Under the pieces are notes generated by a model that saw only the letters and a list, made by a program, of their open reading frames with translations, was not told where the DNA came from and ran no database searches. From positions 19,273-83,272 of the forward strand of contig CALETH010000028.1 of NCBI GenBank assembly GCA_937920105.1: a stretch of DNA of 64,000 bases, read 5' to 3'. The position numbers were made by a program, and so were the translations under genes. Shown piece after piece: positions 26,303 through 42,328 of the stretch (position 1 is the stretch's first letter; every line of letters starts with the position of its first letter). The stretch comes from an uncultured Bacteroidota bacterium (lineage in GTDB: Bacteria; Bacteroidota; Ignavibacteria; UBA10030; UBA8401).

Positions 26303-27388
26303 TTATTGTGTTTTTAAGATTTTCATAAGTTGATGATTGAGATAAAATTTTTCTTTCCCGACAATTTCACTTTTCAAAAAGCCCTTTTTTTCTAACGTTT
26401 GCAAATATGTTCCGGATGTTTTGATATTTCCTAATCCGGCTTTTTCAATAAATGTTCTTTTAGTATAAGGAAGCCGAAATAAAATTTCCAATAAATCTCG
26501 TGAATACATTTTTGGTAATTGCTTTTGAATTTTTTCTCCCATTGCTTGCATCAGATTTTCTATTTTAGCAATACGTTCTCTTCCGCTTTTTGCCGTTACT
26601 TCAATCATATCCAAAATATAAAACACCCAATCTTCCCACGCTTTTTTTTCTGTAACATTTTTTAATTTGAGATAATATTCATTTTTATTTTTTAAGATGT
26701 AACTGCTTAAATACAACGATGGAAGTTCCATCAATCCACAAAGTTGCAAATATAATAAAAGAATAATTCTTCCTGTTCTTCCATTACCATCAAAGAAGGG
26801 ATGGATTGCTTCAAATTGATAATGGATAAATGCTAATTTAATGAGTGGGTCAATTTCATCTTCAAGATGAATAAATTGTTCTAACGCTTTCAATTTTTCA
26901 CGGATAATGGTTTCACCATCTGGTGGCGTATAAATTACTTTTTGTGTTACAGGATTCTTTAATTGTGTTCCAGGGAAATTTCGTATTCCTGTTTGATTTT
27001 CTTTTATAATTCTCATCAAAGCAATAAAAAGATTTGTTGTGAGTAACGGTTTCTTTTGTATTTGCTCAACGCCATACCACAGTGCATCTTTGTAATGGAT
27101 TACTTCTTTTGTTGCAGGGTCTTCCGTTTGTTTATCAGTAATAGCAGATTTGAATAAATCATCTTGTGTGGTGATAATATTTTCAATTGCAGAACTTGCT
27201 TGTGCTTCTTGCAAGTTAATGGTATCTATAAAAAGTAATGGATTGGGTAAATTAGTGATTGCTCCTTTAAGTTCTGATAATGCCCTACTGGATGAAATAA
27301 GTTTTTTAAGAATGGCTTTTGTTTCTATATTAATTTTGGGTGGTAAATCTGGTAAAGCGTTGTAAGGTTTTAAAGGATTATAATTCAT
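26303..27388 (-). CDS. Fic-family protein (AMPylator type) with an N-terminal Fic_N inhibitory helix
   Basis: HPFFDGNGRTGRIILL Fic motif and an S-SAIEN [S/T]xxxE[G/N] inhibitory motif. Start set at MNYNPLKPYN (ATG 27388). The ORF-track N-terminal extension translates terminator hairpins. Confidence 0.85.
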   Translation of the reverse strand: MNYNPLKPYNALPDLPPKINIETKAILKKLISSSRALSELKGAITNLPNPLLFIDTINLQEAQASSAIENIITTQDDLFKSAITDKQTEDPATKEVIHYKDALWYGVEQIQKKPLLTTNLFIALMRIIKENQTGIRNFPGTQLKNPVTQKVIYTPPDGETIIREKLKALEQFIHLEDEIDPLIKLAFIHYQFEAIHPFFDGNGRTGRIILLLYLQLCGLMELPSLYLSSYILKNKNEYYLKLKNVTEKKAWEDWVFYILDMIEVTAKSGRERIAKIENLMQAMGEKIQKQLPKMYSRDLLEILFRLPYTKRTFIEKAGLGNIKTSGTYLQTLEKKGFLKSEIVGKEKFYLNHQLMKILKTQ

Positions 27389-27428
27389 ACAATATTTTTC
27401 TAAAAAATGCTGTTTTTTTGTATTTCCG

Positions 27429-27493
27429 AACGAGGGCAAAAAATCGCTTTTTTTGCCCTCGTTTAAAAAACGAGGGCGTTTGTTGCCCTCGTT
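27429..27493 (-). terminator. Two tandem hairpins sharing GCCCTCGTT arms; likely terminator of the aminotransferase gene
   Basis: First hairpin aacgagggc-aaaaaatcgcttttttt-gccctcgtt. Second hairpin aacgagggc-gtttgtt-gccctcgtt. Confidence 0.5.
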
Positions 27494-27508
27494 CAAAAAT
27501 AATATTAT

Positions 27509-28840
27509 TTACATATTTTTTAATATTTCGCTAATACTTTTTAATCCTTCACTCAATTCTTCTTTTTGAATAATCAATGGAGTTCTAAAGCGAATAGATT
27601 TTTCTCCACATCCTAAAAGAATAACTCCGCGTTCGTACATTGTTTTTCGAAATTCATTTCTGTGTTCTACAGTATCAAAATCCATTGCACACATTAAACC
27701 ACGTCCGCGTGGATTAGAAATGAGTTTAGGAAATTCTTGTGAAAGTGATTGAAGTTCTTGTAATAAAAACTCACCTTGAACTTTTGCATTTTCTACTAAT
27801 TGTTCTTCTTCAATGATTTCCATAATTTTTGTGAAGCGAACCATATCAACCAAATTTCCACCAAAGGTAGAATTTATTCTGCTTGCTTTATGAAAAACAT
27901 TTTCCGGAACATCATCTATTTTTTTGCTGCTCATAAAACCACAGATGTGTGTTTTCTTTCCAAAGGACATTAAATCCGGTTGCACAAAATATTCGTGTAC
28001 CCACATTTTTCCTGTTAAACCAATTCCCGTTTGCACTTCATCAAAAATTAAGAGAATTTCATTTTCATCGCAAAGTTGGCGAAGTTGCAATAAAAATTCT
28101 TTGCGAAAATGATTATCTCCACCTTCGGCTTGAATTGGTTCAATAATTAAGGCAGCAATATCATCTGGATTTTTTTTAATTGCTTCTTTAATTTGCTGAA
28201 TTGCTGTTTGTTCTTCTTTTTCTACTTTTTTTAAATTTTCTTCTGTAAAAGGAAATTGCATTGCGGGATTGTGAATTCTTGGCCATTGAAATTTCGGAAA
28301 ATAATTTGTCTTAACAGGGTCTGTATTAGTTAATGAAATTGTATAACCACTGCGTCCGTGAAAGGCCTGACGAAAATGAATAACTTGCATTCCCTTTTCT
28401 TCTTTATATCCTTTTGCAAAATTTTTTCGCACCTTCCAATCAAAAGCCGTTTTCATTGCATTTTCATTGGCTAATGCACCACCATCAACAAAAAAAACAT
28501 AAGGTAAATATTGCGGCTGAACTACACGAGCAAATGTTTCTGCAAATTCTGCCATTTCCACTGTATAGACATCAGAATTGGATGGTTTATTCACAGCAAC
28601 ATCAGCAAGTTTTTCTTTAAACTCTTTTGATGTGAGTTTTGGATGATTCATTCCTAATGCGGATGAACCAAAAAAAGAGAAAAAATCTAAAAACCATTTT
28701 TTATTTTTTGAATCGTAGAGACGGCAACCTTGACTTTTTTTCAAATCCAACACCATACCAAAACCATCTGCCAACATGTGTTTTGAAAGTGTAGTATGAA
28801 CTTCTTGAGGTTGAATTGTGATATGAGAGAACGTTTTCAT
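27509..28840 (-). CDS. Class III PLP-dependent aminotransferase (possibly L-lysine 6-aminotransferase-like)
   Basis: 443 aa with the general class III aminotransferase layout. The lysine assignment is a guess from the N-terminal similarity. Confidence 0.6.
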   Translation of the reverse strand: MKTFSHITIQPQEVHTTLSKHMLADGFGMVLDLKKSQGCRLYDSKNKKWFLDFFSFFGSSALGMNHPKLTSKEFKEKLADVAVNKPSNSDVYTVEMAEFAETFARVVQPQYLPYVFFVDGGALANENAMKTAFDWKVRKNFAKGYKEEKGMQVIHFRQAFHGRSGYTISLTNTDPVKTNYFPKFQWPRIHNPAMQFPFTEENLKKVEKEEQTAIQQIKEAIKKNPDDIAALIIEPIQAEGGDNHFRKEFLLQLRQLCDENEILLIFDEVQTGIGLTGKMWVHEYFVQPDLMSFGKKTHICGFMSSKKIDDVPENVFHKASRINSTFGGNLVDMVRFTKIMEIIEEEQLVENAKVQGEFLLQELQSLSQEFPKLISNPRGRGLMCAMDFDTVEHRNEFRKTMYERGVILLGCGEKSIRFRTPLIIQKEELSEGLKSISEILKNM

Positions 28841-29087: not shown

Positions 29088-30317
29088 TTATTCCAATGGC
29101 AATACAATAAAAAACTCATTCATCTGATTTTCACTCACACGATATCCCAACGTACCGTTGTGTTTTTCTATCATCATTTTTGAGTAATGAAGTCCAATGC
29201 CTTTGCTGTACACTGAATGTTTTTCTGGTGAAGCATATTTTTCAAACAACGTTGTTTGCTGTTCTTCAGAAATAACTTCTCCAGAATTACGGAATGAGAA
29301 AATTACTTCCCTATTTTTTGTAATAATATCTATTTCGATACTTCCATCCTGCTTTGTATGTTGATACGCATTGGAAAGAAGATTTTCCCACACTAACTCT
29401 ATATATTGACGGTCTACCAAAGCACTATCATTTTTATCATAAGACATGGTAAAACGAATATTTTTTTCTTGAAATTTTGTTTCCCAATTTTTTTTGATGC
29501 CTTCTACTATTTCTTCTATTTGAATTTTCTCTTTTCTCAAATATAATTCTGTTTCCGAAAAAACATTAATGAGATTTCCCACCATTCTATTAATATGCTT
29601 TTGGTCATCCAAAAGACCTTCTATTCTTTTATCACTTCCATTACGCAATTTTAATGATGATAGATGAATAATACTTGTCTGAATTTTATTTTTAACATCA
29701 TGAGCAAATACTTTTATAAAATATTGATTCTTTTGATTGGTTGCTTGTTCTCTCTTTCGCAAATTATTAATAAAAATATTATACAATCCTCCCATAATAA
29801 TAGAAAAGATGAGAGAAATGGATACAATGTACATCTGCAAAAAATTTATTGGTACACCTGAAAGTACTGTTAAAAGGTTATGTAAAAAAAGTGAAACAAT
29901 TGCAGGAAGGAAAAATTCTTTTCCTGTGGATTCTGCCATAATTGCGATTGCGGTATTGCAAATAATAATGATTCCAAAATACGGACTGTAAAATCCTTCG
30001 CCTGAAACAATTGTCATCAACGTTATACTCATACAAGCAAATAAATATCCTACGATAATCAGAGGAGAAATATATTTTTCCAAAATTTTTGTCCGCAAAC
30101 AAAATATTGCAACACAATAGATAATAAACGATGAACGAATTATAAGAAATGCTTCCCAATGGTTGTGATAATATATCACATCCATAATAAAGTATGCAAG
30201 GAAATATGCCAGTGCGGCAGTGATATGAAGAAACGCTGAAAGATTTTGTCTATCGGTGAGTTTGATTTTTTCTGTAGAAAAATCAAAAGAAGAAATTATT
30301 TTTGAAGAATTTATCAT
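29088..30317 (-). CDS. Membrane sensor histidine kinase (multi-TM N-terminus); no cognate regulator nearby
   Basis: At least 6 predicted TM helices, then HisKA (FAHDVKNKIQTSIIHLSSL) and HATPase_c (NSGEVISEEQ...GIGLHYSKMMIEKHNGTL). Start set at the internal MINSS. Confidence 0.7.
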   Translation of the reverse strand: MINSSKIISSFDFSTEKIKLTDRQNLSAFLHITAALAYFLAYFIMDVIYYHNHWEAFLIIRSSFIIYCVAIFCLRTKILEKYISPLIIVGYLFACMSITLMTIVSGEGFYSPYFGIIIICNTAIAIMAESTGKEFFLPAIVSLFLHNLLTVLSGVPINFLQMYIVSISLIFSIIMGGLYNIFINNLRKREQATNQKNQYFIKVFAHDVKNKIQTSIIHLSSLKLRNGSDKRIEGLLDDQKHINRMVGNLINVFSETELYLRKEKIQIEEIVEGIKKNWETKFQEKNIRFTMSYDKNDSALVDRQYIELVWENLLSNAYQHTKQDGSIEIDIITKNREVIFSFRNSGEVISEEQQTTLFEKYASPEKHSVYSKGIGLHYSKMMIEKHNGTLGYRVSENQMNEFFIVLPLE

Positions 30318-30324
30318 GCAAGAA

Positions 30325-31500
30325 TTATTCGTGATATGCCAAACTTGAACCAACCCATCGTTGACCTTTGTTGAATGCAACTCCCATCATTTTTCCTTTA
30401 CTCATTCGCACAAGATTATTGACTAACATTGGTTTTTCATTCCAGATAAACATCATTCTGATTTCTGCTTTGGAAAATCCTTCCGGAGTTTCTACAAGTG
30501 GTGTATATTCTACTTTTTTTTGTAAAAGATAATGCTCTTTATTTTGAATTGCAGAAAGTTTTTCTGGTGTTACTTCTACTTCAACTCCTAAACCAGCAAA
30601 TGAATACAGTGGTTTCAAAACGTAGTTTTGTAAGTCGAAAGGGAGATTTTTTATTTCACTCAATATATAAGCAGGTGGAACGTACTGGCTTTTCAAAAAT
30701 GGCAGTGTGTGTTTGCTAATTCTAAAATACCAGTTTGGATGTCCGAGCCATTCTACATCCAACTCTTCAGTAAAACGAAATTCGCATGGTGGATTTTTTC
30801 GTTCTAATTCATCAAAAATTACTCTATTATAAATTCGTTCAATAGGAATTTCTTTTCCGTTTTTGTAATAAAATAATTTCTTGCCTCGTTTTTTTATTTT
30901 GGTTACACAAACGGATTCTATTCCAAGCAGTGTTTCTGTGCAAGCAAAATCTATTCTCGTTTTTTGATTTTCCGGTTCTATTTCTAATAGAATAACATTT
31001 TCAGAATTGCTTTTTCCAAGGATGGTTTTCTTTAAAAGTTGCAAATATGTTTCATCATTCAATCCACTAAAATATGTTGTGTAATTTTGTGGGATGGAAA
31101 AATATTTTTCAGTTGTTTTTTTGAGGAATGGTTGAAAACCATAGAGCGATGGAAAGCCCTGTAGTTCTATTAATTGCGGAAAAAATTCTCCGTTTTCATT
31201 TTTACAAATAGCAAAATCTACTTGTAGAAATATGGGATGTGATGTTTCGTTGGGAACGATGAGATGCTGAGGAATTGCTTTTGTAGAATAGTCAAAAAAT
31301 GTTTTGGTTTGTAATTGATTGACTATCTCGTACGAGGCATCAACAAGTTTTTGTGTTAATTCTTTGGAGAGAAAAAGTGGCGTTTCGGAAACTGCAAAAT
31401 CTATTGGATATTTATAGGTAGTGTGAAGTTCTTGCATGAATGCCGAATATGTTTTTTCAGAAAATTCGGCGTTGTATTTTTTTCGTAAGGAAGGGAGCAT
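30325..31500 (-). CDS. Hypothetical protein (391 aa), possible ATP-grasp-like C-terminal region
   Basis: C-terminal YVLKPLYSFAGLGVEV resembles the ATP-grasp / glutathionylspermidine-synthetase-like nucleotide-binding loop. Otherwise unassigned. Confidence 0.3.
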   Translation of the reverse strand: MLPSLRKKYNAEFSEKTYSAFMQELHTTYKYPIDFAVSETPLFLSKELTQKLVDASYEIVNQLQTKTFFDYSTKAIPQHLIVPNETSHPIFLQVDFAICKNENGEFFPQLIELQGFPSLYGFQPFLKKTTEKYFSIPQNYTTYFSGLNDETYLQLLKKTILGKSNSENVILLEIEPENQKTRIDFACTETLLGIESVCVTKIKKRGKKLFYYKNGKEIPIERIYNRVIFDELERKNPPCEFRFTEELDVEWLGHPNWYFRISKHTLPFLKSQYVPPAYILSEIKNLPFDLQNYVLKPLYSFAGLGVEVEVTPEKLSAIQNKEHYLLQKKVEYTPLVETPEGFSKAEIRMMFIWNEKPMLVNNLVRMSKGKMMGVAFNKGQRWVGSSLAYHE

Positions 31501-31508
31501 AAATTTAA

Positions 31509-32285
31509 TTATTGATTGTATCGTGAAAAATAATTATCTATTTCGGTTCGTAGTTCAATTCCAACTTTTTCAAAAATAGTAAGTAATTGTTGATATGTAC
31601 CTTCTCCACCAAGAAAATCCCAAAATTCGTTTGCTACTTTTAACTCATTTTCTAAATCCAACATTCCTCTCATTGTCCAACGATTATAGGGTTGCGGTTC
31701 ATACGGATTATACGGTATTGCGACAAGTGAATGAACTTTTGCTTTTGGCTCATTGGCAAGTGTTACAGCTACCCACTCTAAAAGAGTTCGTTTAAATTCT
31801 TTAAAACCGCCTGCATTGGGTTTTGCTGTTTTTATATCAAAAAGAAAAATTTGATTATTCTTATCTACTAATTTTATATCTACTTTTGTTGGTTTTACAG
31901 TAATCATTTTTCCTTTTCTACAAACATTTCTAATTTTTTCTATTTCTGAATTTTTATTTGGTGAGGTTTTTGCTGTCGTAAGTCCATCCATAATTTGTTG
32001 GATAACTTTTTGTGCTTCTTCACTTATTTCAGTTCCTGCTGTTGCTTGTGATGTTACTTCTTTAAAATTTGTTAATGCTAAGGCCACAGCGACTGGCTCA
32101 AAAATGCTTGTACCAAAATTTGTATTAAGAGAATGTATAAATGAAAACAACGCCATTCTATCTTTACCTAAAAGACGTGTATGAAATGGCATTGATGCTG
32201 GTTCTGGCTTATAGTTTTGAAATTTACGTCGTAAATTTTCTTTAAGAACAGTTTCTATTTGTTGAATTTGTAATTTTTCTAACAA
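31509..32285 (-). CDS. Putative Type II restriction endonuclease (PD-DxK)
   Basis: Overlaps the 3' end of the methyltransferase gene by 7 bp. KLVD-x9-DIK fits a PD-(D/E)xK core. Confidence 0.5.
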   Translation of the reverse strand: MLEKLQIQQIETVLKENLRRKFQNYKPEPASMPFHTRLLGKDRMALFSFIHSLNTNFGTSIFEPVAVALALTNFKEVTSQATAGTEISEEAQKVIQQIMDGLTTAKTSPNKNSEIEKIRNVCRKGKMITVKPTKVDIKLVDKNNQIFLFDIKTAKPNAGGFKEFKRTLLEWVAVTLANEPKAKVHSLVAIPYNPYEPQPYNRWTMRGMLDLENELKVANEFWDFLGGEGTYQQLLTIFEKVGIELRTEIDNYFSRYNQ

Positions 32286-33865
32286 GACTTTACTTCTTTC
32301 AAATGAAAAATTATTTCCGCATACGCTGTTTTATCTTTTTCTGTACGGTTTAATACGGGACGTTTAAATTGATTAACGATTTTCATTTCTGCTTTTTCTG
32401 CAATTATTGGATATAAGTTAAATTTATCATTAGAAACTAAAAATATATTATAATTTTCTTCTAAATATTGTTTGCAATTATTTAATACAGCGGAAATTCC
32501 ATCCACATATAAACGTTGTGCTTCTTTTGTTTGTTTTTTTGCAAGTGGTCCTATTTCCAATTCATCATTTCGCTCAAAACCAAATAAATCGTATGCGTAC
32601 GCATGTTGTTCATGATAATCAATTAATCCAACATACGGAGGCGAAGAAAAAATTCCTTGAATTTTCTTTTCTTTTACTATTGCAGCAAATGCTGGAAATA
32701 TTTTTTGCAGTTGTTTATAAATATCAATAGTACGAGAATCTCCTGTTAAACATATTTGATTGGTATTTGTTCGTAGTGAGGTAAATTCGCTTAATCGTTT
32801 TATGGTATCTTTGGAATATCGTTCCCACCAATCATACATAGAAAAAAGCGGTTTACAAATTTTTCCATGTTTTGCACAATAATAAGTACTGGTAATTGGT
32901 TCAATTAATGTTGCTAAATCAGCATGAGTTGTTGCCCTACAAGTTCTCACCGTTCTACTTAAAATAATACTTACTATTTTTTTAACTTGTGAATTTTTGA
33001 TGGATTTTACTAATTCAAAAACAAAATCGATTTCTTTTCTTACTGGATACAAGTACCATGTATCCAAAAAAGTTTTTTTGTTTTTTTGCTGTATTTGAAT
33101 AGAAAATTGTTTTACTAGTTTTTGAAATATGGGTTGGAATTTTTGAACTTTATCTTGTGTGTATTCCAATTCATTTATTTTTTTTTCTTTCAGCCAATGT
33201 TTATAATCGGGTGATGGAAAGTATGTGTTATTAAAGGTGGTGAGTTTTTCTAGAAGTGCTTCCTCAAATTGTCTGTTGGAATGACTTGCAATAAATTGTT
33301 GTAGTTTGGAAGAAATATTTTTTACTTCAATAAGTATATCTGATAAATTATAATGAGCAATTTTTGCATTGGAAATGTGTGTATTAAATGCAGAAACATC
33401 TATACCAATTGCATGAATTCCTAATTCATTGGCTTGCACTAAAGTTGTTCCACTTCCACAAAATGGGTCAAGAACAATATCTCCTGCTTGAAAATATTTT
33501 TCTTTTTTAAATTCATCTGTATGATTATCTAAAAAATATTCCACAAGTTGTGGAATAAATTTTCCTTTATAAGGATGTAATCGATGAACATGTTTTGTAG
33601 TTTCTGCTTCTTTTAAATAATCAAATGATAAATTCCAATTCAAATCATTGCCAAGTTGTTTTTTCCAATTTAATTCTCGTTTTCCGTAAAATGATTCATA
33701 GTATTTACGTAATTCATCTTTTTTAATCAAAGGATTTCCATTATTACCTACTTTTTTAATTTTTCCGTAATTAATCAAATAAGTAATATTAGACGTTGTT
33801 ACATTTTTGTTCAAATGTTCCGACGCCCAAATGCTTGCTTCTTTTATTGTTAAAAAATCGTTCAT
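32279..33865 (-). CDS. DNA methyltransferase (amino-MTase, alpha-like order) with an N-terminal HTH-like region
   Basis: Motif I VLDPFCGSGTT (~residue 130) preceded by HRLHPYKGKFIPQLVEYFL. Motif IV SSPPY lies near the C-terminus. Confidence 0.8.
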   Translation of the reverse strand: MNDFLTIKEASIWASEHLNKNVTTSNITYLINYGKIKKVGNNGNPLIKKDELRKYYESFYGKRELNWKKQLGNDLNWNLSFDYLKEAETTKHVHRLHPYKGKFIPQLVEYFLDNHTDEFKKEKYFQAGDIVLDPFCGSGTTLVQANELGIHAIGIDVSAFNTHISNAKIAHYNLSDILIEVKNISSKLQQFIASHSNRQFEEALLEKLTTFNNTYFPSPDYKHWLKEKKINELEYTQDKVQKFQPIFQKLVKQFSIQIQQKNKKTFLDTWYLYPVRKEIDFVFELVKSIKNSQVKKIVSIILSRTVRTCRATTHADLATLIEPITSTYYCAKHGKICKPLFSMYDWWERYSKDTIKRLSEFTSLRTNTNQICLTGDSRTIDIYKQLQKIFPAFAAIVKEKKIQGIFSSPPYVGLIDYHEQHAYAYDLFGFERNDELEIGPLAKKQTKEAQRLYVDGISAVLNNCKQYLEENYNIFLVSNDKFNLYPIIAEKAEMKIVNQFKRPVLNRTEKDKTAYAEIIFHLKEVKSC

Positions 33866-33950: not shown

Positions 33951-33981
33951 TATTATCCTTCCTAATTCTGACTTCTTACTT

Positions 33982-34995
33982 CTACATTAAAAACTTTCCT
34001 TTTTCCATAATTTTTTCGTCGTCCATCCAAATATCAAAATTGCGACCAACGCAATCTATGTGTGTGGTGGAAATCCATGTTTGGCCAGTGTGTTCTGCGT
34101 AAGGATGTCCGAAGGCAATGTGAATTCCGGGGATTTTTTCATCTTGCAAAATATTTCCTATCACATTTTTTATGGCGATGTTTGTTCCAATAGCAAATTC
34201 TCCAACACGATTACTGTTTTCATCAGTGTTGGTGTAGGCAGTAAATTCTTGTAATAGTTCTTTATTACTGCATTCTATTTTTGCGATACGATTTTCTACT
34301 ATATCTATATAGACTGGAGTTTTTTGTATATCTCCATATTTTTGGCAAAGATAATCTCCTACTACACCATCAACAACAAATTTTCCGTTGGTATTTTGTG
34401 GGGATGTGAAAATTTCTCCTCCGGGAAGATTCCCCCATTTTTCCGGTGTAATAATTCCGCTGGTTTTTAACCATTTAAGATTGGGTGAAAATGTTGCTAT
34501 AATATTGGTTCCTGCGGGTGTTGTGGCTTTAATGATTTTTGTTTGACGTGCTTTTTCTACTAATTTTTGACTGATTGCATCGACTTGTAAAAAATCTGCC
34601 TGCATTCCTTCTAACATTATTTGCTTATCTATATTGACCATGTGTCCGTGACGAATTTTGTGTTGTCCTACCACTTTCGTCATTTGAATTCGTGAGCCAA
34701 GTTCTCCTGTTTGTACCATGCAAGCAAATATACTGACTTGCGATTTTGCAAGGTCTTCCAAAATTGGTTGCGGCATATCTTTTAATGGTCGTTGTGCGTA
34801 ATCTTCCAATACAAAAACGCTGTATTCTGAGCCAACTTTTTCTATTTCATGGATGAGTGCTGAAGCGATTTCTATTGATTTTCTATCGGTAATCAATGTC
34901 ATTCGTTCGTTTGGTTTGAGGCGAAGACACACGTTGATTGCATTATATGCTCCTTTACTTAATCGTGTGTCAAATGTTACGGTTGTTTCTGTCAT
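33982..34995 (-). CDS. M29-family aminopeptidase (AmpS/PepS-like)
   Basis: 337 aa. The ...GIHIAFGHPY... and VVDGVVGDY segments are typical of thermophilic-type M29 aminopeptidases. Confidence 0.65.
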   Translation of the reverse strand: MTETTVTFDTRLSKGAYNAINVCLRLKPNERMTLITDRKSIEIASALIHEIEKVGSEYSVFVLEDYAQRPLKDMPQPILEDLAKSQVSIFACMVQTGELGSRIQMTKVVGQHKIRHGHMVNIDKQIMLEGMQADFLQVDAISQKLVEKARQTKIIKATTPAGTNIIATFSPNLKWLKTSGIITPEKWGNLPGGEIFTSPQNTNGKFVVDGVVGDYLCQKYGDIQKTPVYIDIVENRIAKIECSNKELLQEFTAYTNTDENSNRVGEFAIGTNIAIKNVIGNILQDEKIPGIHIAFGHPYAEHTGQTWISTTHIDCVGRNFDIWMDDEKIMEKGKFLM

Positions 34996-35030: not shown

Positions 35031-36515
35031 TTATTTTATCATTATCATTTTTTTTGTTTCAGAAAATTTGCCTGCTGTGAGACGGTAATAATATATTCCA
35101 CTTGTTAATGATGAAGCATTAAATGGTATTTGATATGCTCCTGCTTGCATTTCTTGATTGAGTAATGTTGTTATTTCTTTTCCTAAAATATTGTACACTT
35201 TTAAAATTACTTTTTCATTGGTGGGGATTTGAAATTGTATTTCTGTGGTTGGGTTAAATGGATTGGGATAGTTTTGTTGTAGTGTATAATTTTCTGGGAT
35301 ATTTATTAATTCTCTCTTTATTGTTGTAATTGTATTCCCTTTATTTAACACAATTGCTATTTGATTTTTTGTATATACTTCAGTAAATCGAGTAGCAATA
35401 ATATCTTGGTAATTATCATTGTTAATATCTGCTACTTGAAATGATGTAAGTGTATCAATTCCTAATTTTACTGGAATTGGATTTTGAAATGTTCCATTTC
35501 CATTACCTAATAAATACCACAATGTATCTGATATAATACCTTTCAGAGGAGTAAATGTAGTTGCTACAAAAATATCAAGTTTTCCATCATTATTAAAATC
35601 TCCTACTTGTGGTTGTATTTCACCAAGGTTTAGATTGGTTTTAGTAGAAATTAAAGAAGATGAAAAATCTCCTACTCCTGTACCAAATTGTACTTTTACT
35701 GTATCCGTGAAACGGATTTGAGAAACTAAATCTGGAATACCATCATTATTAAAATCTCCAATGTTGGAATTAAATCCTATTAAATAAGTTTTTTTAGTAA
35801 ATACCCCATTTGTTTCTTGTTTATACCAATGACCTGAGCCTTTTAGAATATCTATTCTTCCATCATTATCAAAATCTGTAAATTGTATCCATCCTACTCC
35901 ACCTCCTACATCAGGATGAGAAACTCTTGTAAATGTATTATCATGATTATTGTAATATATTCGAAGTGCTGATGAAAATTGGCTTTGTGCTTCATTAAAT
36001 GTTAAAATGATATCTTGATAACCATCATTATTAATATCAACACAACGAAGAACTTGAATATTATTACAGGTATCAGTAAAAAAGAATGTGTCTGCAATTG
36101 CACCAACTGGGTCAATTCCCATAAATATTGCCAAACCATTTCCTCCGCTACTAATAACATCCATTTTACCATCATTGTTTATGTCGGCAATATCGTACAT
36201 CAAACCATTGGAAAATACAAAATTTGTATTAACTGTGTGAGGAAAAATCTGTTCTGGTTGAAAAGTTCCATTACTATTTCCTTGTAAAACGTTATAAAAA
36301 ATACTTGTTTGAGGAACAAGCATCCCACTACTATCTCTGTAAATAGTATTTGTTCCACCAATAATATCTACTTTTCCATCATTATCGTAATCTCTGATTA
36401 AGAAATAATTTGGGTAACCATTGTATTGATAATGTGTTGGTGTTGTTTCAAATCCTTTCCATTGAGCAAAAAGATTGATGGTTATAAAAAACAGTAATAC
36501 AAATTTTTTTATCAT
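35031..36515 (-). CDS. FG-GAP/VCBS repeat protein with a T9SS C-terminal sorting domain
   Basis: Repeated D[IF]NNDG[KYRI].D[IV] motifs (six or more). C-terminus YPNPFNPTTEIQFQIP...KVYNILGKEITTLLN...YYYRLTAGKFSETKKMIMIK. Confidence 0.8.
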   Translation of the reverse strand: MIKKFVLLFFITINLFAQWKGFETTPTHYQYNGYPNYFLIRDYDNDGKVDIIGGTNTIYRDSSGMLVPQTSIFYNVLQGNSNGTFQPEQIFPHTVNTNFVFSNGLMYDIADINNDGKMDVISSGGNGLAIFMGIDPVGAIADTFFFTDTCNNIQVLRCVDINNDGYQDIILTFNEAQSQFSSALRIYYNNHDNTFTRVSHPDVGGGVGWIQFTDFDNDGRIDILKGSGHWYKQETNGVFTKKTYLIGFNSNIGDFNNDGIPDLVSQIRFTDTVKVQFGTGVGDFSSSLISTKTNLNLGEIQPQVGDFNNDGKLDIFVATTFTPLKGIISDTLWYLLGNGNGTFQNPIPVKLGIDTLTSFQVADINNDNYQDIIATRFTEVYTKNQIAIVLNKGNTITTIKRELINIPENYTLQQNYPNPFNPTTEIQFQIPTNEKVILKVYNILGKEITTLLNQEMQAGAYQIPFNASSLTSGIYYYRLTAGKFSETKKMIMIK

Positions 36516-37634
36516 TTATTTTTGTAATCCTGATGTTGTTTCGCTAACAATGTAATCTACAACGGCTCGCATATCACGAGTTTTTTCCCATACTTTTACT
36601 TGTCTATCAGCACCAGTTCCATTGTTGAGCATTTCGTACACGTAATTTATTTCTTCACGACTTCCTAAATCGTCAACAACGTCATCGACAAATTCCAAAA
36701 GTTCATTAATGAGTGTGTTGGTTGGTACTTCTTCTTGTTTTCCGAAATCTATAAGTTTTCCGGAAATTCCATACCGTGCAGCTCGCCAACGGTTTTCATT
36801 AATTAATCTCCCTTTATAAATTCTAAATCCGAGATTTTGTTTGAAGAGTTTGTAGAGTTTTGCAGTTACTGCTTGCATGAGTGCCGCAAGTGCGATGGTT
36901 TCATCAACTCGCATGGGAATATCACAAATTCTCCATTCTAATGTGTGAAACATTGGATGCAAACGTATATCCCACCAGATTTTTTTTGGATTATCAATAC
37001 AGTTGGTTTTTACTAAAAGTTTTACATATTCTTCGTACTCAGAAAGACTTTCAAAAACATCGGGAACTCCTGTGCGGGGAAAGCGTTCAAAAATTTTTAT
37101 ACGATAGGATTTAAATCCCGTGTTGCTTCCTTCCCAAAATGGTGAGTTGGTGGAAAGTGCAAAAATATGCGGGATAAAATATCGTGCGGTATTCATAATT
37201 TGAATTGCTGTTTCACGGTCAGGCATTCCAACATGAACATGCAATCCGAAAATGAGATTGGCTCTCGCAATTTGCTGCATATCTTCTACAATAATTTTGT
37301 AGCGGATGCCATCGGTAATTTTTTGGTCTTCCCATCGTGAAAAGGGATGTGTTCCTGCAGCAGCAATTCGCATTCCTGCACGTTCGGCAAGCTTGGCAAG
37401 TTCTGTCCGCAGTTTTATTACTTCTCTTCGTGCTTCGGAAATATTTTTGCAAACGTCTGTTCCGACTTCCACAACGGATTGGTGCATTTCTGGTTTGACA
37501 TTTTCTTTGAGTATCATTTTCCCATCTTCCAAAATTTGCTGGATATGAGAATGAAGTTCTCGTGTTGCTGGATTGACGATTTGAAATTCTTCCTCTATGC
37601 CGAGGGTGAATTGTTCGCTTGGGAGTTTTTTCAT
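36516..37634 (-). CDS. YbdK-type carboxylate-amine ligase (GCS2 family)
   Basis: FTLGIEEEFQIV N-terminus and overall GCS2 layout, 372 aa. Confidence 0.8.
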   Translation of the reverse strand: MKKLPSEQFTLGIEEEFQIVNPATRELHSHIQQILEDGKMILKENVKPEMHQSVVEVGTDVCKNISEARREVIKLRTELAKLAERAGMRIAAAGTHPFSRWEDQKITDGIRYKIIVEDMQQIARANLIFGLHVHVGMPDRETAIQIMNTARYFIPHIFALSTNSPFWEGSNTGFKSYRIKIFERFPRTGVPDVFESLSEYEEYVKLLVKTNCIDNPKKIWWDIRLHPMFHTLEWRICDIPMRVDETIALAALMQAVTAKLYKLFKQNLGFRIYKGRLINENRWRAARYGISGKLIDFGKQEEVPTNTLINELLEFVDDVVDDLGSREEINYVYEMLNNGTGADRQVKVWEKTRDMRAVVDYIVSETTSGLQK

Positions 37635-37679
37635 AATGTTTTTTTTAGAATTCAGAAGTCAGAATTCTGAATTCAGTTT

Positions 37680-37914
37680 TTATTTAGTTTTTGAATTATA
37701 AATTGCTTTCATATATCCTGTTAATAATTTACTTACCTCTTCTAAATTTTCAAAAAGTTCATTGGTATTTGCATAATGCAAGTCAGAAATCAAAATGAGA
37801 TAATATCGGCATTCTTCCAGCGAACCTTGTGCAATATTATACAGATAAAACAAATTGATGTGCTTTTTGCCAAACAATTAAATCTTTAAAAGTTTTCGCT
37901 GTTTCGTTTTGCAT
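37680..37914 (-). pseudogene. Degraded four-helix-bundle protein gene (23S rRNA IVS protein family)
   Basis: Frame A reads MQNETAKTFKDLIVWQKAHQFVLSV*. Frame B then reads NIAQGSLEECRYYL...LTGYMKAI. The N- and C-terminal signatures of the family are present, but about 35 aa are missing and there is a frameshift between them. Confidence 0.55.
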
Positions 37915-37950
37915 ACTAATTCTGATTTCTGAATTCCGACTTCTGTATTC

Positions 37951-38904
37951 TTATAAAGATTTTCCACCCGCAAATGCTTTCACAAATTTTCCCCAGGTAA
38001 GATTATTTTGGCCGGGTTTGTGTTCTTTTGCTTTTTGGATAAGCATGTTTGCTGCTGCTTCAAGTACCCAATCAAAATTTTCTTGTCCAACAGAATTTAC
38101 ATCTGCATCGGGTGCGGGATTGCAGAAATCTATTGCTAAAGGTACACCATCTCGCACAGCAAATTCTACAGTATTAAAATCGTAACCCAATGCTTGGTTA
38201 AGTGCGAGTGTATCTTTTTCTACTCGTTCTAACAATTTTTTTGCAACCGGTGGTCCATTTTTTACATAACGGAGATGGTGTGGATTGCGTGGTTCGTATT
38301 GCATGATGCGGACATCTTTTCCACCAATGCAATAGCAACGAAAATATTCTGTGAAGATGACTTCTTCTTGCAACATCATTACAAGTTGTCCGGTTTCATT
38401 GTAGGCTTTGAAAAATTCTTCGTAGCTGCTGAGTTTGTAAACATTTTTCCAACCACCGCCGGCGAATGGTTTGAAGTATGCGGGAAATCCGACATAGTTA
38501 AAAATTCCTTCCCAATCTAATGGATAGGCGAGATTTCTCATGGAACGTTCGTTGGTATCGGGTGGATGTTGGTTAGATGGTAAGAGTACAGTTTTTGGTA
38601 CGGCAACTCCGATTTTTGTGGCAAGTGCGTTGTTAAAAAATTTTTCATCGGCGCTCCACCAAAATGGATTGTTGACTACTGCTGTTCCGCTGAGTGCTGC
38701 GTTTTTTAAATATCCGCGATAAAATGGGATGTCTTGCGAAATGCGGTCTAAGATAACATCGTACTGGCATTGTTCGCCTTGTACTACTTTATCTATGCGG
38801 ACAAATTCTGCGGTGATTCCTTTTTCTTTTTTTGAGTTGATGCGTTCTACTAATGCTGGCGGAAAGGTGTTTTCCTGCCCAAAGAGGATTCCGATTTTTT
38901 TCAT
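37951..38904 (-). CDS. ATP-grasp-family ligase (RimK/GshB-like)
   Basis: 317 aa. GFPAYFKPFAGGGWKNV ATP-binding loop and overall ATP-grasp layout. Confidence 0.65.
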   Translation of the reverse strand: MKKIGILFGQENTFPPALVERINSKKEKGITAEFVRIDKVVQGEQCQYDVILDRISQDIPFYRGYLKNAALSGTAVVNNPFWWSADEKFFNNALATKIGVAVPKTVLLPSNQHPPDTNERSMRNLAYPLDWEGIFNYVGFPAYFKPFAGGGWKNVYKLSSYEEFFKAYNETGQLVMMLQEEVIFTEYFRCYCIGGKDVRIMQYEPRNPHHLRYVKNGPPVAKKLLERVEKDTLALNQALGYDFNTVEFAVRDGVPLAIDFCNPAPDADVNSVGQENFDWVLEAAANMLIQKAKEHKPGQNNLTWGKFVKAFAGGKSL

Positions 38905-38958
38905 GGTGTTTCCTTTCTAAAAATATAAATGAATAATTTTTACTTTTTCAATTTTAAA

Positions 38959-39675
38959 TTAAATTCTTGACAAATACTTTGGGAACATTTCTCGCCACCA
39001 GGGCCAATCGTGACCAACGCCTTGTCTATCATCTAACCAATGATTTATTCCTTTAGAGAAAAGTATTCCGGAAAGTTTATGATTTTCTCCGCGGCAACTA
39101 TCCCACTCACCTGTTCCTAACACAATTCCCATTTGATGTAAGTGGTGAAAATACCATGGGTCACTTAAATTCGGCATGTAATCCATTGGATTGTTGAAAT
39201 AACAATTATCATCATAATATCCATCAATAAATTGTTTAATATCAAATGCACCGCTCATGCTGAATACATATCCTACTTTATCGGGATGACGAAATGCGAT
39301 ATTGGCTGAATGATATCCACCAAAACTACATCCGGCAACACCAACTTTGCTTCGTCCGGTTTCTCGCATAGCATATTCAAATACATCGTGCAAAATTACA
39401 TTTTCGTACGCCATATGGGTTTTTACTCTATCGGCGGGATGGATGGATTTGTTGTACCAACTTTGTTCATCTATTCCATTCGGACAGTAAATTTTAATGA
39501 GTCCGGCATCTAAAAAATATGAGGCAGATTCTATTAATTTAAAATCTTTGTTTTGATAATGATTACCGAGTGAGGTGGGAAATGCGATGATGGGATATCC
39601 GGAATGTCCGAAAACAGCCATTTCAAAATCTCTGCTGAGGTACGGTGTGTACCAGCGTATAAGTTGTTCTTGCAT
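38959..39675 (-). CDS. Alpha/beta-hydrolase esterase (esterase D / enterochelin-esterase-like)
   Basis: GCSFGG nucleophile elbow. Putative-esterase family layout. Confidence 0.7.
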   Translation of the reverse strand: MQEQLIRWYTPYLSRDFEMAVFGHSGYPIIAFPTSLGNHYQNKDFKLIESASYFLDAGLIKIYCPNGIDEQSWYNKSIHPADRVKTHMAYENVILHDVFEYAMRETGRSKVGVAGCSFGGYHSANIAFRHPDKVGYVFSMSGAFDIKQFIDGYYDDNCYFNNPMDYMPNLSDPWYFHHLHQMGIVLGTGEWDSCRGENHKLSGILFSKGINHWLDDRQGVGHDWPWWREMFPKYLSRI

Positions 39676-40662: not shown

Positions 40663-40957
40663 TTAAAAATTAACAATGAAAAATTATCAATATTATTTTT
40701 TTTAAATTACAGATATAAGATTTTTTTCTCGCAAAGACGCAAAGTCGCTAATCTTTTAATAAATGGAACACTGGGTATACATTTTATTTCTATAATTACA
40801 ATAATTCATTGTTTTTTTCACATAAAAAATAGAACACTGATTTGTTATCCGCCACGGGCGGATTACTATGATATTCACTGAAATATTCTATCTTCTACCT
40901 TCTGAATTCTGACTTCTTAATTCTCACTTACTCCACTACTCATTTACTCAACTACTT

Positions 40958-42328
40958 TCAAACTTTTTTAAACTCCGCCACCAAACCTTGAACAACATTC
41001 TTCGCATCTCCAAAAAGCATTCGTGTGTTGGGTTTGAAAAATAATGGATTTTCAATTCCTGCAAAACCAGAAGCCATTGAACGTTTCATTACGATTACAG
41101 TTTTTGCCATATCAACATTGATAATCGGCATTCCATAAATGGGACTACTTTTATCTTCTCGTGCAGACGGATTGACAACATCATTTGCTCCAATGACTAA
41201 ACACACATCGATGGTTTCCATAATGGGATTGACGGCGTCCATTTCAAAAAGTTTATCGTACGAAACATTGGCTTCAGCAAGTAATACGTTCATGTGTCCG
41301 GGCATTCTTCCTGCAACGGGATGGATGATGTAACGAACTTCTGCTCCATTGTGTTCCAACAATTCTCCCAACTCGCGAACAACGTGTTGGGCTTGTGCAA
41401 CAGCAAGTCCGTAACCGGGAACAACCGCAACAGAACGTGCTGCTTCCAAAATGTAATACGCATCTTCAACAGAAACAGATTTTACTTCTCCTTGTGCTGC
41501 ATTACTTGTTTGCATTGTTACCGAACCAAATCCGCTGAACAACACATTGGTGAGTGAACGGTTCATTGCTTTGCACATAATTTGTGTAAGAATAATTCCG
41601 CTGGCACCAACAAGTGAACCAGTAACAATCAACACATTATTTTGGATAGCAAATCCGGCAAAACATGCAGCAATTCCAGAATAACTGTTGAGCAGCGAAA
41701 TCACCACCGGCATATCCGCTCCACCAATTGGAATAACGGATGTTATCCCTAAAATAAATGATAATACAATTATAAAAAGAAAAATTTCCGGACTTAATTC
41801 TGGTTGGAGAACAAAAATAATTCCCAATACAATTGCTGAAAGTAAAAGTAATCCATTTACAAATTTTTGTCCGGAAAAAAGAATTGGTTTTCCTGTCATC
41901 ACTTCTTTGAGTTTTGCCCATGCAATAACACTTCCGGTAAATGTTATTCCGCCAACAAGGATTGTGAGAAATAATGTTGTGGACGTGTAGCAATCAAACG
42001 AAGCTGCTCGGTGATATTCTGCCCAGCCAACAAGCAAACTCGCAAGTCCGCCATAACCATTTAAGAGTGCAACCATTTGCGGCATTTCGGTCATCTTTAC
42101 AATTTTTGCGAGGATTATTCCGATGACAGAACCAATGAGCATTCCAACAATAATCCACGTGAAATCAAGAATTTGGTAATGAATGATTGTTGCGAGTATT
42201 GCGATGAGCATTCCAACGGCAGAAATTAAATTTCCACGACGTGCGGTTTCCGGTTTTCCTAATTTTTTTAATCCGATAATAAAAAGTGTTGCGGCGATGA
42301 TGTATAAAATTTCTGCAAATGATGTCAT
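40958..42328 (-). CDS. pntB: NAD(P) transhydrogenase subunit beta
   Basis: 456 aa. Membrane domain followed by the dIII NADP(H)-binding domain (GYGLAVAQAQH...HPVAGRMPGHMNVLLAEA). Confidence 0.95.
   Translation of the reverse strand: MTSFAEILYIIAATLFIIGLKKLGKPETARRGNLISAVGMLIAILATIIHYQILDFTWIIVGMLIGSVIGIILAKIVKMTEMPQMVALLNGYGGLASLLVGWAEYHRAASFDCYTSTTLFLTILVGGITFTGSVIAWAKLKEVMTGKPILFSGQKFVNGLLLLSAIVLGIIFVLQPELSPEIFLFIIVLSFILGITSVIPIGGADMPVVISLLNSYSGIAACFAGFAIQNNVLIVTGSLVGASGIILTQIMCKAMNRSLTNVLFSGFGSVTMQTSNAAQGEVKSVSVEDAYYILEAARSVAVVPGYGLAVAQAQHVVRELGELLEHNGAEVRYIIHPVAGRMPGHMNVLLAEANVSYDKLFEMDAVNPIMETIDVCLVIGANDVVNPSAREDKSSPIYGMPIINVDMAKTVIVMKRSMASGFAGIENPLFFKPNTRMLFGDAKNVVQGLVAEFKKV

Follow-up and report, generated by a model that had tools for sequence, protein, structure and literature searches.

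A conserved cytoplasmic operon of three unrelated carboxylate-amine ligases and associated hydrolases, present as a broken copy in an uncultured Ignavibacteria genome

The question raised by this locus is whether unrelated amide-bond ligases encoded side by side in the genome of an uncultured Bacteroidota bacterium belong to a single system and, if so, where the limits of that system lie and what it might produce. The stretch of DNA that was analysed (the window) comprises 64,000 nucleotides of contig CALETH010000028.1 (assembly GCA_937920105.1, positions 19,273 to 83,272 of the forward strand; lineage Ignavibacteria, UBA10030, UBA8401), and the genes in question encode an ATP-grasp ligase, a GCS2-type carboxylate-amine ligase and an esterase. 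An earlier note on this DNA had described these three together with a neighbouring FG-GAP protein and an M29 peptidase, and the open reading frames (ORFs) of all five were recovered where the note had placed them, all on the minus strand. Comparison with other genomes reveals in this region the broken copy of a cytoplasmic operon that is conserved elsewhere and encodes, in order, an alpha/beta-hydrolase, the ATP-grasp ligase, the GCS2 ligase, the M29 protein (elsewhere a GATase1-like protein) and a third ligase with the GspS/YgiC fold. In the window these five genes are all intact and none departs from its normal length, but three insertions split them, the features being as follows.

38959..39675, minus strand: alpha/beta-hydrolase (esterase), 238 amino acids, first gene of the operon (PF00756, Abhydrolase_1).
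37951..38904, minus strand: ligase 1, ATP-grasp, 317 amino acids, classical topology, RimK/LysX-like fold, no Pfam model.
37641..37957, minus strand: decayed gene of the four-helix-bundle (23S-IVS protein) family, local insertion (TIGR02436).
36516..37634, minus strand: ligase 2, GCS2/YbdK-type carboxylate-amine ligase, 372 amino acids, glutamine-synthetase fold (PF04107, NF010039).
35031..36515, minus strand: FG-GAP repeat protein with a type IX secretion system (T9SS) C-terminal sorting domain, local insertion (FG-GAP_3, FG-GAP, Por_Secre_tail).
33982..34995, minus strand: divergent M29-family metallopeptidase-like protein, 337 amino acids, hydrolase of the fourth slot (PF02073).
32279..33865, minus strand: N6/N4 DNA methyltransferase, local insertion (PF01555 at 1.8e-15).
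31509..32285, minus strand: TdeIII-like endonuclease, local insertion (PF09520 at 1.4e-95).
30325..31500, minus strand: ligase 3, 391 amino acids, no Pfam or NCBIfam model, GspS/YgiC/eukaryotic-glutathione-synthetase fold.

Conservation of the array was examined by scanning one genome per species, which returned at least 600 relatives; the best 80 were kept, and these 80 loci are from Ignavibacteria, Bacteroidota, Verrucomicrobiota and Acidobacteriota. The denominators given for each position include only those loci long enough for that position to be tested. Additional members of the operon were found by clustering all ORFs neighbouring the ATP-grasp gene, with clusters c7, c10, c18 and c30 of the first clustering being discarded as antisense or fused-frame artefacts in loci of high guanine-plus-cytosine (GC) content. 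The GCS2 gene lies directly 3' of the ATP-grasp gene and on the same strand at 61 of 69 loci, and the esterase gene directly 5' of it, again on the same strand, at 43 of 71. A gene for an M29 or a GATase1-like protein (the latter matching PF00117 weakly) follows GCS2 at 38 of the 56 loci with at least 4 kb of downstream sequence, and a protein of ∼391 amino acids, without a match in Pfam or NCBIfam, closes the array (41/56 loci). A second and clearer PF00756 esterase, usually divergent and beside the first, is present at 31 of 65 loci. Across the four phyla the order and strand of the genes are fixed and their junctions are tight; in one Ignavibacteriales genome (L081), with an array of ATP-grasp, GCS2, GATase and the 391-amino-acid protein, independent gene calls place successive genes so that they abut or overlap (11136/11137 and 11973/11973). 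Since order and strand recur in 80 genomes of four phyla, the clustering is far beyond what chance would produce.

The earlier note had proposed that the esterase and the two ligases form a unit, and this triplet is indeed co-conserved in other genomes. As a description of the whole system, however, the proposal was incomplete, there being three ligases and up to three hydrolases, and its boundary was drawn too narrowly, with both the membership of the M29 gene and the third ligase at 30325-31500 having been missed. What is kept together is a set of three mechanistically independent ATP-dependent carboxylate-amine ligases, with catalytic signatures intact in all three, and two or three hydrolases.

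The ATP-grasp proteins of different phyla share on average 65-70% identity, the GCS2 proteins 58-70%, the M29 proteins 63-66%, the esterases 48-57% and the third ligases 43-52%; the value for the ATP-grasp protein is of a level that would be expected only of core translation proteins. The closest neighbour sequence came almost without exception from the same phylum, as it did for 70 of 73 ATP-grasp proteins; inheritance therefore looks mostly vertical, and the proteins of the operon appear to evolve very slowly. A search of plasmids for the ATP-grasp gene found none, and among the 80 loci there was neither a transporter or regulator conserved in the array nor a conserved small ORF (25-95 amino acids) of the kind expected of a tag or carrier, the only matches to small ORFs being lineage-specific, for instance a Cys-rich peptide associated with FeoB in Sphingobacteriaceae. 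The absence of plasmid carriage and of a conserved transporter or regulator speaks for a product of housekeeping type that stays inside the cell, and against a secondary metabolite that is secreted. Cultured carriers of the operon include Mucilaginibacter, Pedobacter xixiisoli, Belliella kenyensis and Cryomorpha ignava. Flanking genes are lineage-specific in their synteny and, as read from their sequences, presumably encode TypA/BipA, PrfA, AccA, a glyoxalase-like protein and a LysR regulator with men genes. At five loci from Udaeobacter-like Verrucomicrobiota (L051, L059, L061, L079 and L080) the operon is adjoined by a VOC/glyoxalase-looking gene, judged from its sequence, and by a D-Ala-D-Ala carboxypeptidase-like gene, both on the opposite strand and directly 5' of the ATP-grasp gene. 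The glyoxalase-like neighbour would fit a thiol-type product, but represents lineage-specific synteny.

The identity of each ligase was considered in turn. The ATP-grasp protein of the window has no match in Pfam, and a look-up of its exact sequence returned no record. When compared with the PDB, the profile of its family retrieves D-Ala-D-Ala ligase (6e-7), biotin carboxylases, RimK and ArgX, and alignment with E. coli RimK by hhalign gives a probability of 87% over 206 columns, with 19% identity. Eighteen sequences from across the phyla agree without exception in residues K145, G149-G151, Q179, E181, E247, D259 and N262, and E180 is kept in at least 90% of sequences. E247, D259 and N262 line up with the metal ligands of Ddl in a hidden Markov model alignment, and the elements of the predicted ATP/Mg2+ site, namely a strand Lys, a Gly-rich loop, a hinge Q/E and an acidic/acidic/Asn triad, are all conserved. 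The profile matches and the invariant residues of the ATP and metal site place the protein within the ATP-grasp superfamily fold, and the original call was right at that level. It is not a standard RimK, nor is it a glutathione synthetase, two identities that would have pointed to a known and unrelated role: the score against the RimK family model (rimK_fam, TIGR00768) is 22.9 bits against a cutoff of 143.4, and neither of the GSH-S models (PF02951 and PF02955) matches, which places it outside GshB also. The enzyme is a RimK/LysX-like fold that falls outside every named family.

In many relatives of this enzyme the C-terminus is extended by a basic tail, either Lys/Ala/Pro-rich and histone-H1-like or AT-hook-like, which is absent from the protein of the window. 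Tails of this type are carried by the in-operon ATP-grasp proteins of 14 of 22 Bacteroidota, four of seven loosely labelled Bacteroidota metagenome-assembled genomes and two of 13 Ignavibacteria, and by none of the 22 Verrucomicrobiota or seven Acidobacteriota proteins. The tail of Cryomorpha, for example, is 167 amino acids long, and that of a Saprospiraceae genome has GKRGPKPK repeats, with tail-bearing orthologs being encoded at loci L040, L067, L032, L049 and L066, among others. True RGRP AT-hook or helix-hairpin-helix tails are found on many representatives of the family; P0121-P0123, P0130, P0146, P0147, P0169 and P0231 each bear a tail that is histone-H1-like, AT-hook or helix-hairpin-helix in kind. 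The basic character of the tails points to a putative association of the ATP-grasp enzyme with a polyanion, most simply nucleic acid. Paralogs with 45-50% identity stand alone in Kapabacteria and Ignavibacteria, without GCS2 or third-ligase neighbours (L086, 8001-9415, and L088, 8001-12161), and their contexts vary and are uninformative; one of them overlaps the start of smpB, and another precedes an unknown protein of 554 amino acids and an aromatic ammonia-lyase. Because of these stand-alone paralogs, and of the loci at which no GCS2 gene adjoins the ATP-grasp gene, the enzyme may have a function of its own and may not strictly need the other members of the operon.

The second ligase is a full-length member of the GCS2 family, matching PF04107 with an E-value of 3.8e-69 (233.7 bits) over profile positions 1-290 of 291. 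Of the NCBIfam models it passes only the generic carboxylate-amine ligase NF010039 (PRK13515; 549.9 bits, cutoff 371), falling under the glutamate-cysteine ligase equivalog cutoffs and, with a score of 269 against a cutoff of 425, under that of the E. coli YbdK equivalog NF010040. The top match in the PDB is nevertheless YbdK (1r8g, 4.8e-51). The GhExE Mg/ATP motif of the family, as defined in PMC2588565, is represented in the window protein by G12-I-E14-E15-E16, and G12, E14, E15 and E16 do not vary among 63 orthologs. According to an entry in PMC2588565 that lists Lehmann 2004, YbdK is active as a gamma-glutamyl:cysteine ligase, and the relatives of GCS2 include the Pup ligase PafA (PMC2588565).

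The third ligase has an ATP-grasp fold of the GspS/eukaryotic glutathione synthetase type, and its AlphaFold model is confident (predicted local distance difference test, pLDDT, of 90.7). Resemblance in sequence is faint: YgiC is matched with an E-value of 0.02, and by hhalign with an E-value of 1.5e-4 in the region of the VLKPL sequence and Gly loop (probability 51%, 80 columns). Membership of the GSP_synth family (PF03738) is not apparent at the sequence level, since that model does not match the protein of the window and matches only three of 18 orthologs, with a best E-value of 0.0078. The RefSeq product name of E. coli YgiC is peptide-spermidine ligase, and a passage of PMC12568646 that cites Pederick 2023 describes YgiC and YjfC as peptidylpolyamine synthetases or peptide-spermidine ligases. 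Cp1B, which likewise has no Pfam domain, is a working ATP-grasp ligase, namely a pseudodipeptide ligase (PMC12568646). By analogy with these nearest characterised relatives only, a polyamine may be the amine substrate of the third ligase.

Among the hydrolases, the esterase matches the 'putative esterase' model PF00756 (29.2 bits, cutoff 22) and also Abhydrolase_1. Its nucleophile motif is GCSFG, and a Ser-Asp-His triad is present, with Ser117 kept in 41, Asp192 in 43 and His222 in 42 of 43 orthologs. The M29 protein scores 58.1 bits against PF02073 (cutoff 27), although only residues 150-319 align, and the profile of its orthologs retrieves from the PDB both AmpS (1zjc, 4.4e-5) and the M29-fold dioxygenase NicX (0.015); residues E194, E266, D285, E286, H292, H297, H312 and D314 are invariant among the orthologs. 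The slot after GCS2 is filled by M29 at 16 loci and by the GATase1-like protein at 22, and never by both. Bacteroidota proper have only the GATase1-like protein in this slot, whereas Ignavibacteria have either. The GATase1-like proteins, which would be thiol hydrolases, keep the Cys (ICHSFQ) and HPE motifs, as read from the sequences. That the two should substitute for one another would be explained if both recognised a residue whose alpha-amino group is free, as in a gamma-glutamyl group.

As to what the operon produces, the most likely reading, if somewhat short of probable, is that it directs the stepwise synthesis and turnover of a small conjugate resembling glutathione or glutathionylspermidine. 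The three ligases would act successively on one small substrate, following the logic by which glutathione is converted to glutathionylspermidine: GCS2 would make the first amide, most likely gamma-glutamyl-X; the ATP-grasp enzyme would add another amino acid to the free carboxylate; and the GspS/YgiC-like ligase would add an amine, for example a polyamine, as a cap. Trimming or recycling of the product would fall to the hydrolases. For two of the three ligases the nearest relatives that have been characterised act on small molecules, which by analogy fits a metabolite, and the lack of a conserved tag or carrier ORF, or of a transporter, fits a small intracellular one. The pairing between a carboxylate-amine ligase and a GATase-like thiol peptidase has been read as the synthesis of a glutathione-like peptide (PMC2588565). 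That linked, unrelated amidoligases perform successive ligations, a general idea that underlies the earlier note, is in agreement with a statement in PMC4431377 attributed to Aravind's group (citing Iyer 2009).

Several points weigh against a small conjugate as the product. The order of the steps is itself inferred, and the nearest structural relatives of the ATP-grasp enzyme, RimK and LysX/ArgX, act on protein C-termini. Basic tails of a DNA- or RNA-binding type are unusual for a small-molecule enzyme, and an identity of 65-70% between phyla exceeds expectation for an ordinary metabolic enzyme. The paralogs with 45-50% identity stand apart from any GCS2 or third-ligase gene, there are loci at which GCS2 does not adjoin the ATP-grasp gene, and the GATase1-like protein could be an ammonia donor as opposed to a hydrolase. 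A more specific proposal, which we regard as doubtful, is that a hitherto undescribed pathway of housekeeping grade, common to the four phyla, yields a new peptide-amine conjugate, such as a peptide-polyamine comparable to glutathionylspermidine, and does so on or near nucleic acids, to which histone-H1-like or AT-hook tails would tether the ATP-grasp ligase in Bacteroidota.

An explanation in terms of protein modification is unlikely, but is the one that survives best among the alternatives. The ATP-grasp enzyme, perhaps with the other ligases, would act on a protein associated with the ribosome or nucleoid and add amino acids at its C-terminus or on a side chain, in the manner of RimK acting on ribosomal protein S6 or LysX/ArgX acting on LysW, with the hydrolases removing the modification. 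The RimK/LysX-like fold of the enzyme and the very high sequence conservation between phyla are in favour, as are the basic tails on 14 of 22 in-operon Bacteroidota proteins and the AT-hook and helix-hairpin-helix tails of the family representatives, the presence of the Pup ligase PafA among the relatives of GCS2 (PMC2588565) and the overlap of one ATP-grasp paralog with the start of smpB. However, neither the operon nor its immediate surroundings contain a conserved gene for a tag, carrier or target, and the tails are absent from Verrucomicrobiota (0/22), from Acidobacteriota (0/7) and from the protein of the window. Additionally, the GspS/YgiC-fold and GCS2 families have been characterised on small molecules, and RimK-like enzymes themselves include small-molecule ligases, among them CofF, MptN and the N-acetylaspartylglutamate (NAAG) synthetases.

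The class-I amidotransferase triad of the GATase1-like protein is intact and PF00117 is matched, which would be consistent either with an amidotransferase system, in which this protein supplies ammonia to the acyl-phosphate formed by a ligase, or with a protecting-group pathway, in which GCS2 transiently gamma-glutamylates an amine that is then processed and deglutamylated, as in the Puu and ergothioneine pathways. Indeed, a ligase of glutamine-synthetase fold with a GATase1 hydrolase resembles PuuA/PuuD, which is just such a combination, and a GCS2-like ligase with an amidohydrolase resembles the EgtA (GCS2-like) and EgtC (amidohydrolase) pair of ergothioneine synthesis. Either scheme is nonetheless improbable. 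The array contains no conserved oxidase, dehydrogenase, methyltransferase or other tailoring enzyme, the slot is filled at 16 loci by M29, which cannot donate ammonia, and three ligases are more than the scheme needs.

It is very improbable that the genes simply make glutathione, GCS2 serving as the gamma-glutamylcysteine ligase and the ATP-grasp enzyme as the glutathione synthetase: GCS2 family membership is in favour of this reading, and homologs of the ATP-grasp protein are sometimes labelled 'glutathione synthase/RimK-type ligase-like' or 'glutathione synthase', but no GSH-S model of Pfam matches, GCS2 falls under the glutamate-cysteine ligase equivalog cutoffs, and the third ligase and the hydrolases are left unexplained. 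Moreover, the phyla concerned are reported to rely mainly on bacillithiol-type thiols. A merely coincidental adjacency of unrelated genes, which the insertions that separate the genes in the window might suggest, is excluded by the recurrence of order and strand in four phyla (61/69, 43/71 and 41/56) with abutting junctions.

Among the closest known systems are the GshA/GshB/GspS/TryS pathway, which leads from glutathione to glutathionylspermidine or trypanothione, and the E. coli ligases YgiC/YjfC. Unlike GspS, the third ligase is under the threshold of Pfam GSP_synth and has no CHAP amidase domain, and in contrast to GshB the ATP-grasp enzyme of the operon is closer to RimK/LysX; furthermore, and as distinct from the glutathionylspermidine pathway, the genes form a single operon with hydrolases of the esterase family and of the M29 or GATase1 type. 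Compared with RimK and LysX/ArgX, the ATP-grasp protein has an identity of only 12-19%, and the operon has no S6-, LysW- or rimAB-type partner. GCS2 shares with E. coli YbdK its full-length family, the GhExE motif and, as top PDB match, 1r8g, but belongs to a different equivalog (NF010040, 269 against a cutoff of 425) and sits in a multi-ligase operon. The array as a whole is similar to the linked-amidoligase operons predicted by Iyer, Abhiman, Burroughs and Aravind (2009, Mol Biosyst 5:1636), in which, according to a statement in PMC4431377, genes for ATP-grasp and COOH-NH2 ligases are associated for successive ligations.

No study of this operon, or experiment on it, was found in the literature searched, which did not cover Iyer et al. 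2009, where part of it may be listed. Operons of linked, unrelated amidoligases are already known as a prediction, and this array appears to be uncharacterised in the searched literature; what appears to be new is the combination of three ligases, one from a family without a model, with alternative hydrolases and a tail-bearing central enzyme. The ATP-grasp enzyme and the third ligase lack a family model and GCS2 has only a generic name, yet the array has relatives in at least 600 species-level genomes, and identification of the product would assign a function to several large 'hypothetical' families at once. That product could be a small peptide conjugate that is new and common, or else a new protein modification, among bacteria that abound in soil and water.

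Three local insertions, none of them part of the system, account for the remaining genes of the region: an FG-GAP gene, a four-helix-bundle remnant and a restriction-modification pair. The start codon of the FG-GAP gene abuts the stop codon of GCS2, but at none of the 80 loci is there an FG-GAP gene between GCS2 and M29. The GC content of the gene, in windows of 500 nucleotides, is 27-31%, whereas the genes for the esterase, the ATP-grasp enzyme, GCS2 and M29 are at 36-41% and that for the third ligase falls between (∼32-33%). The suggestion that the FG-GAP/T9SS protein is a partner or acceptor of the ligases was rejected, since it is not conserved at that position in any other locus and is of low GC. 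The restriction-modification pair, of type II and on the same strand as the operon, lies between M29 and the third ligase, has a GC content of 29-31% and is absent from that position in the other loci. Its endonuclease and methyltransferase genes overlap by 7 nucleotides, and the endonuclease stop codon is 8 nucleotides from the start of the third ligase.

The remnant between the two adjoining ligase genes is not a full-length four-helix-bundle gene (TIGR02436, PF05635). An ORF at 37680-37877 (65 amino acids) corresponds to no more than the C-terminal half of the four-helix-bundle/23S-IVS family (33.9 bits against TIGR02436, cutoff 24; profile positions 58-108 of 109), while three-frame translation of 37600-38010 reveals an N-terminal fragment, MQNETAKTFKDLIVWQKAHQFVLSV*, in a different frame at ∼37840-37914. 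The description of this gene as decayed is correct, because its fragments lie in two frames and the middle of the protein is missing. An imperfect inverted repeat of 36 nucleotides (37641-37676 and 37922-37957, 83% complementary) brackets the remnant, and no counterpart occurs between ATP-grasp and GCS2 at any of the 80 other loci, which upholds the further claim that it marks an insertion point. A motif of ∼20 nucleotides (GAATTCAGAAGTCAGAATTC and variants) is present in seven copies in the window against none expected by chance, its sites including 33963-33982, 37641-37676, 37917-37957 and 40904-40923. It flanks the remnant as the inverted repeat, occurs just past the M29 stop codon at the junction of the restriction-modification insertion, and is found in the gap between a HEAT-repeat gene and the gene at 40958-42328. 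The motif could represent a small interspersed repeat that is associated with sites of insertion.

Located 3' of the third ligase are genes for a histidine-kinase-type ATPase, a class-III aminotransferase and a Fic/SoFic-like protein (26303-27496, 27509-28840 and 29088-30380), none of which is conserved with the operon in other genomes. A scan of the region for sigma-70-like promoters returned 59 sites against 49.5 ± 7.6 in shuffled sequence, which is not above chance, and the scan is uninformative for this lineage. The best site in it (TTAACA, an 18-nucleotide spacer and TATAAT, 11 of 12 positions; 37695-37724, minus strand) is inside the four-helix-bundle remnant, ∼60 nucleotides 5' of the GCS2 start, where it could drive expression of GCS2 after the insertion.

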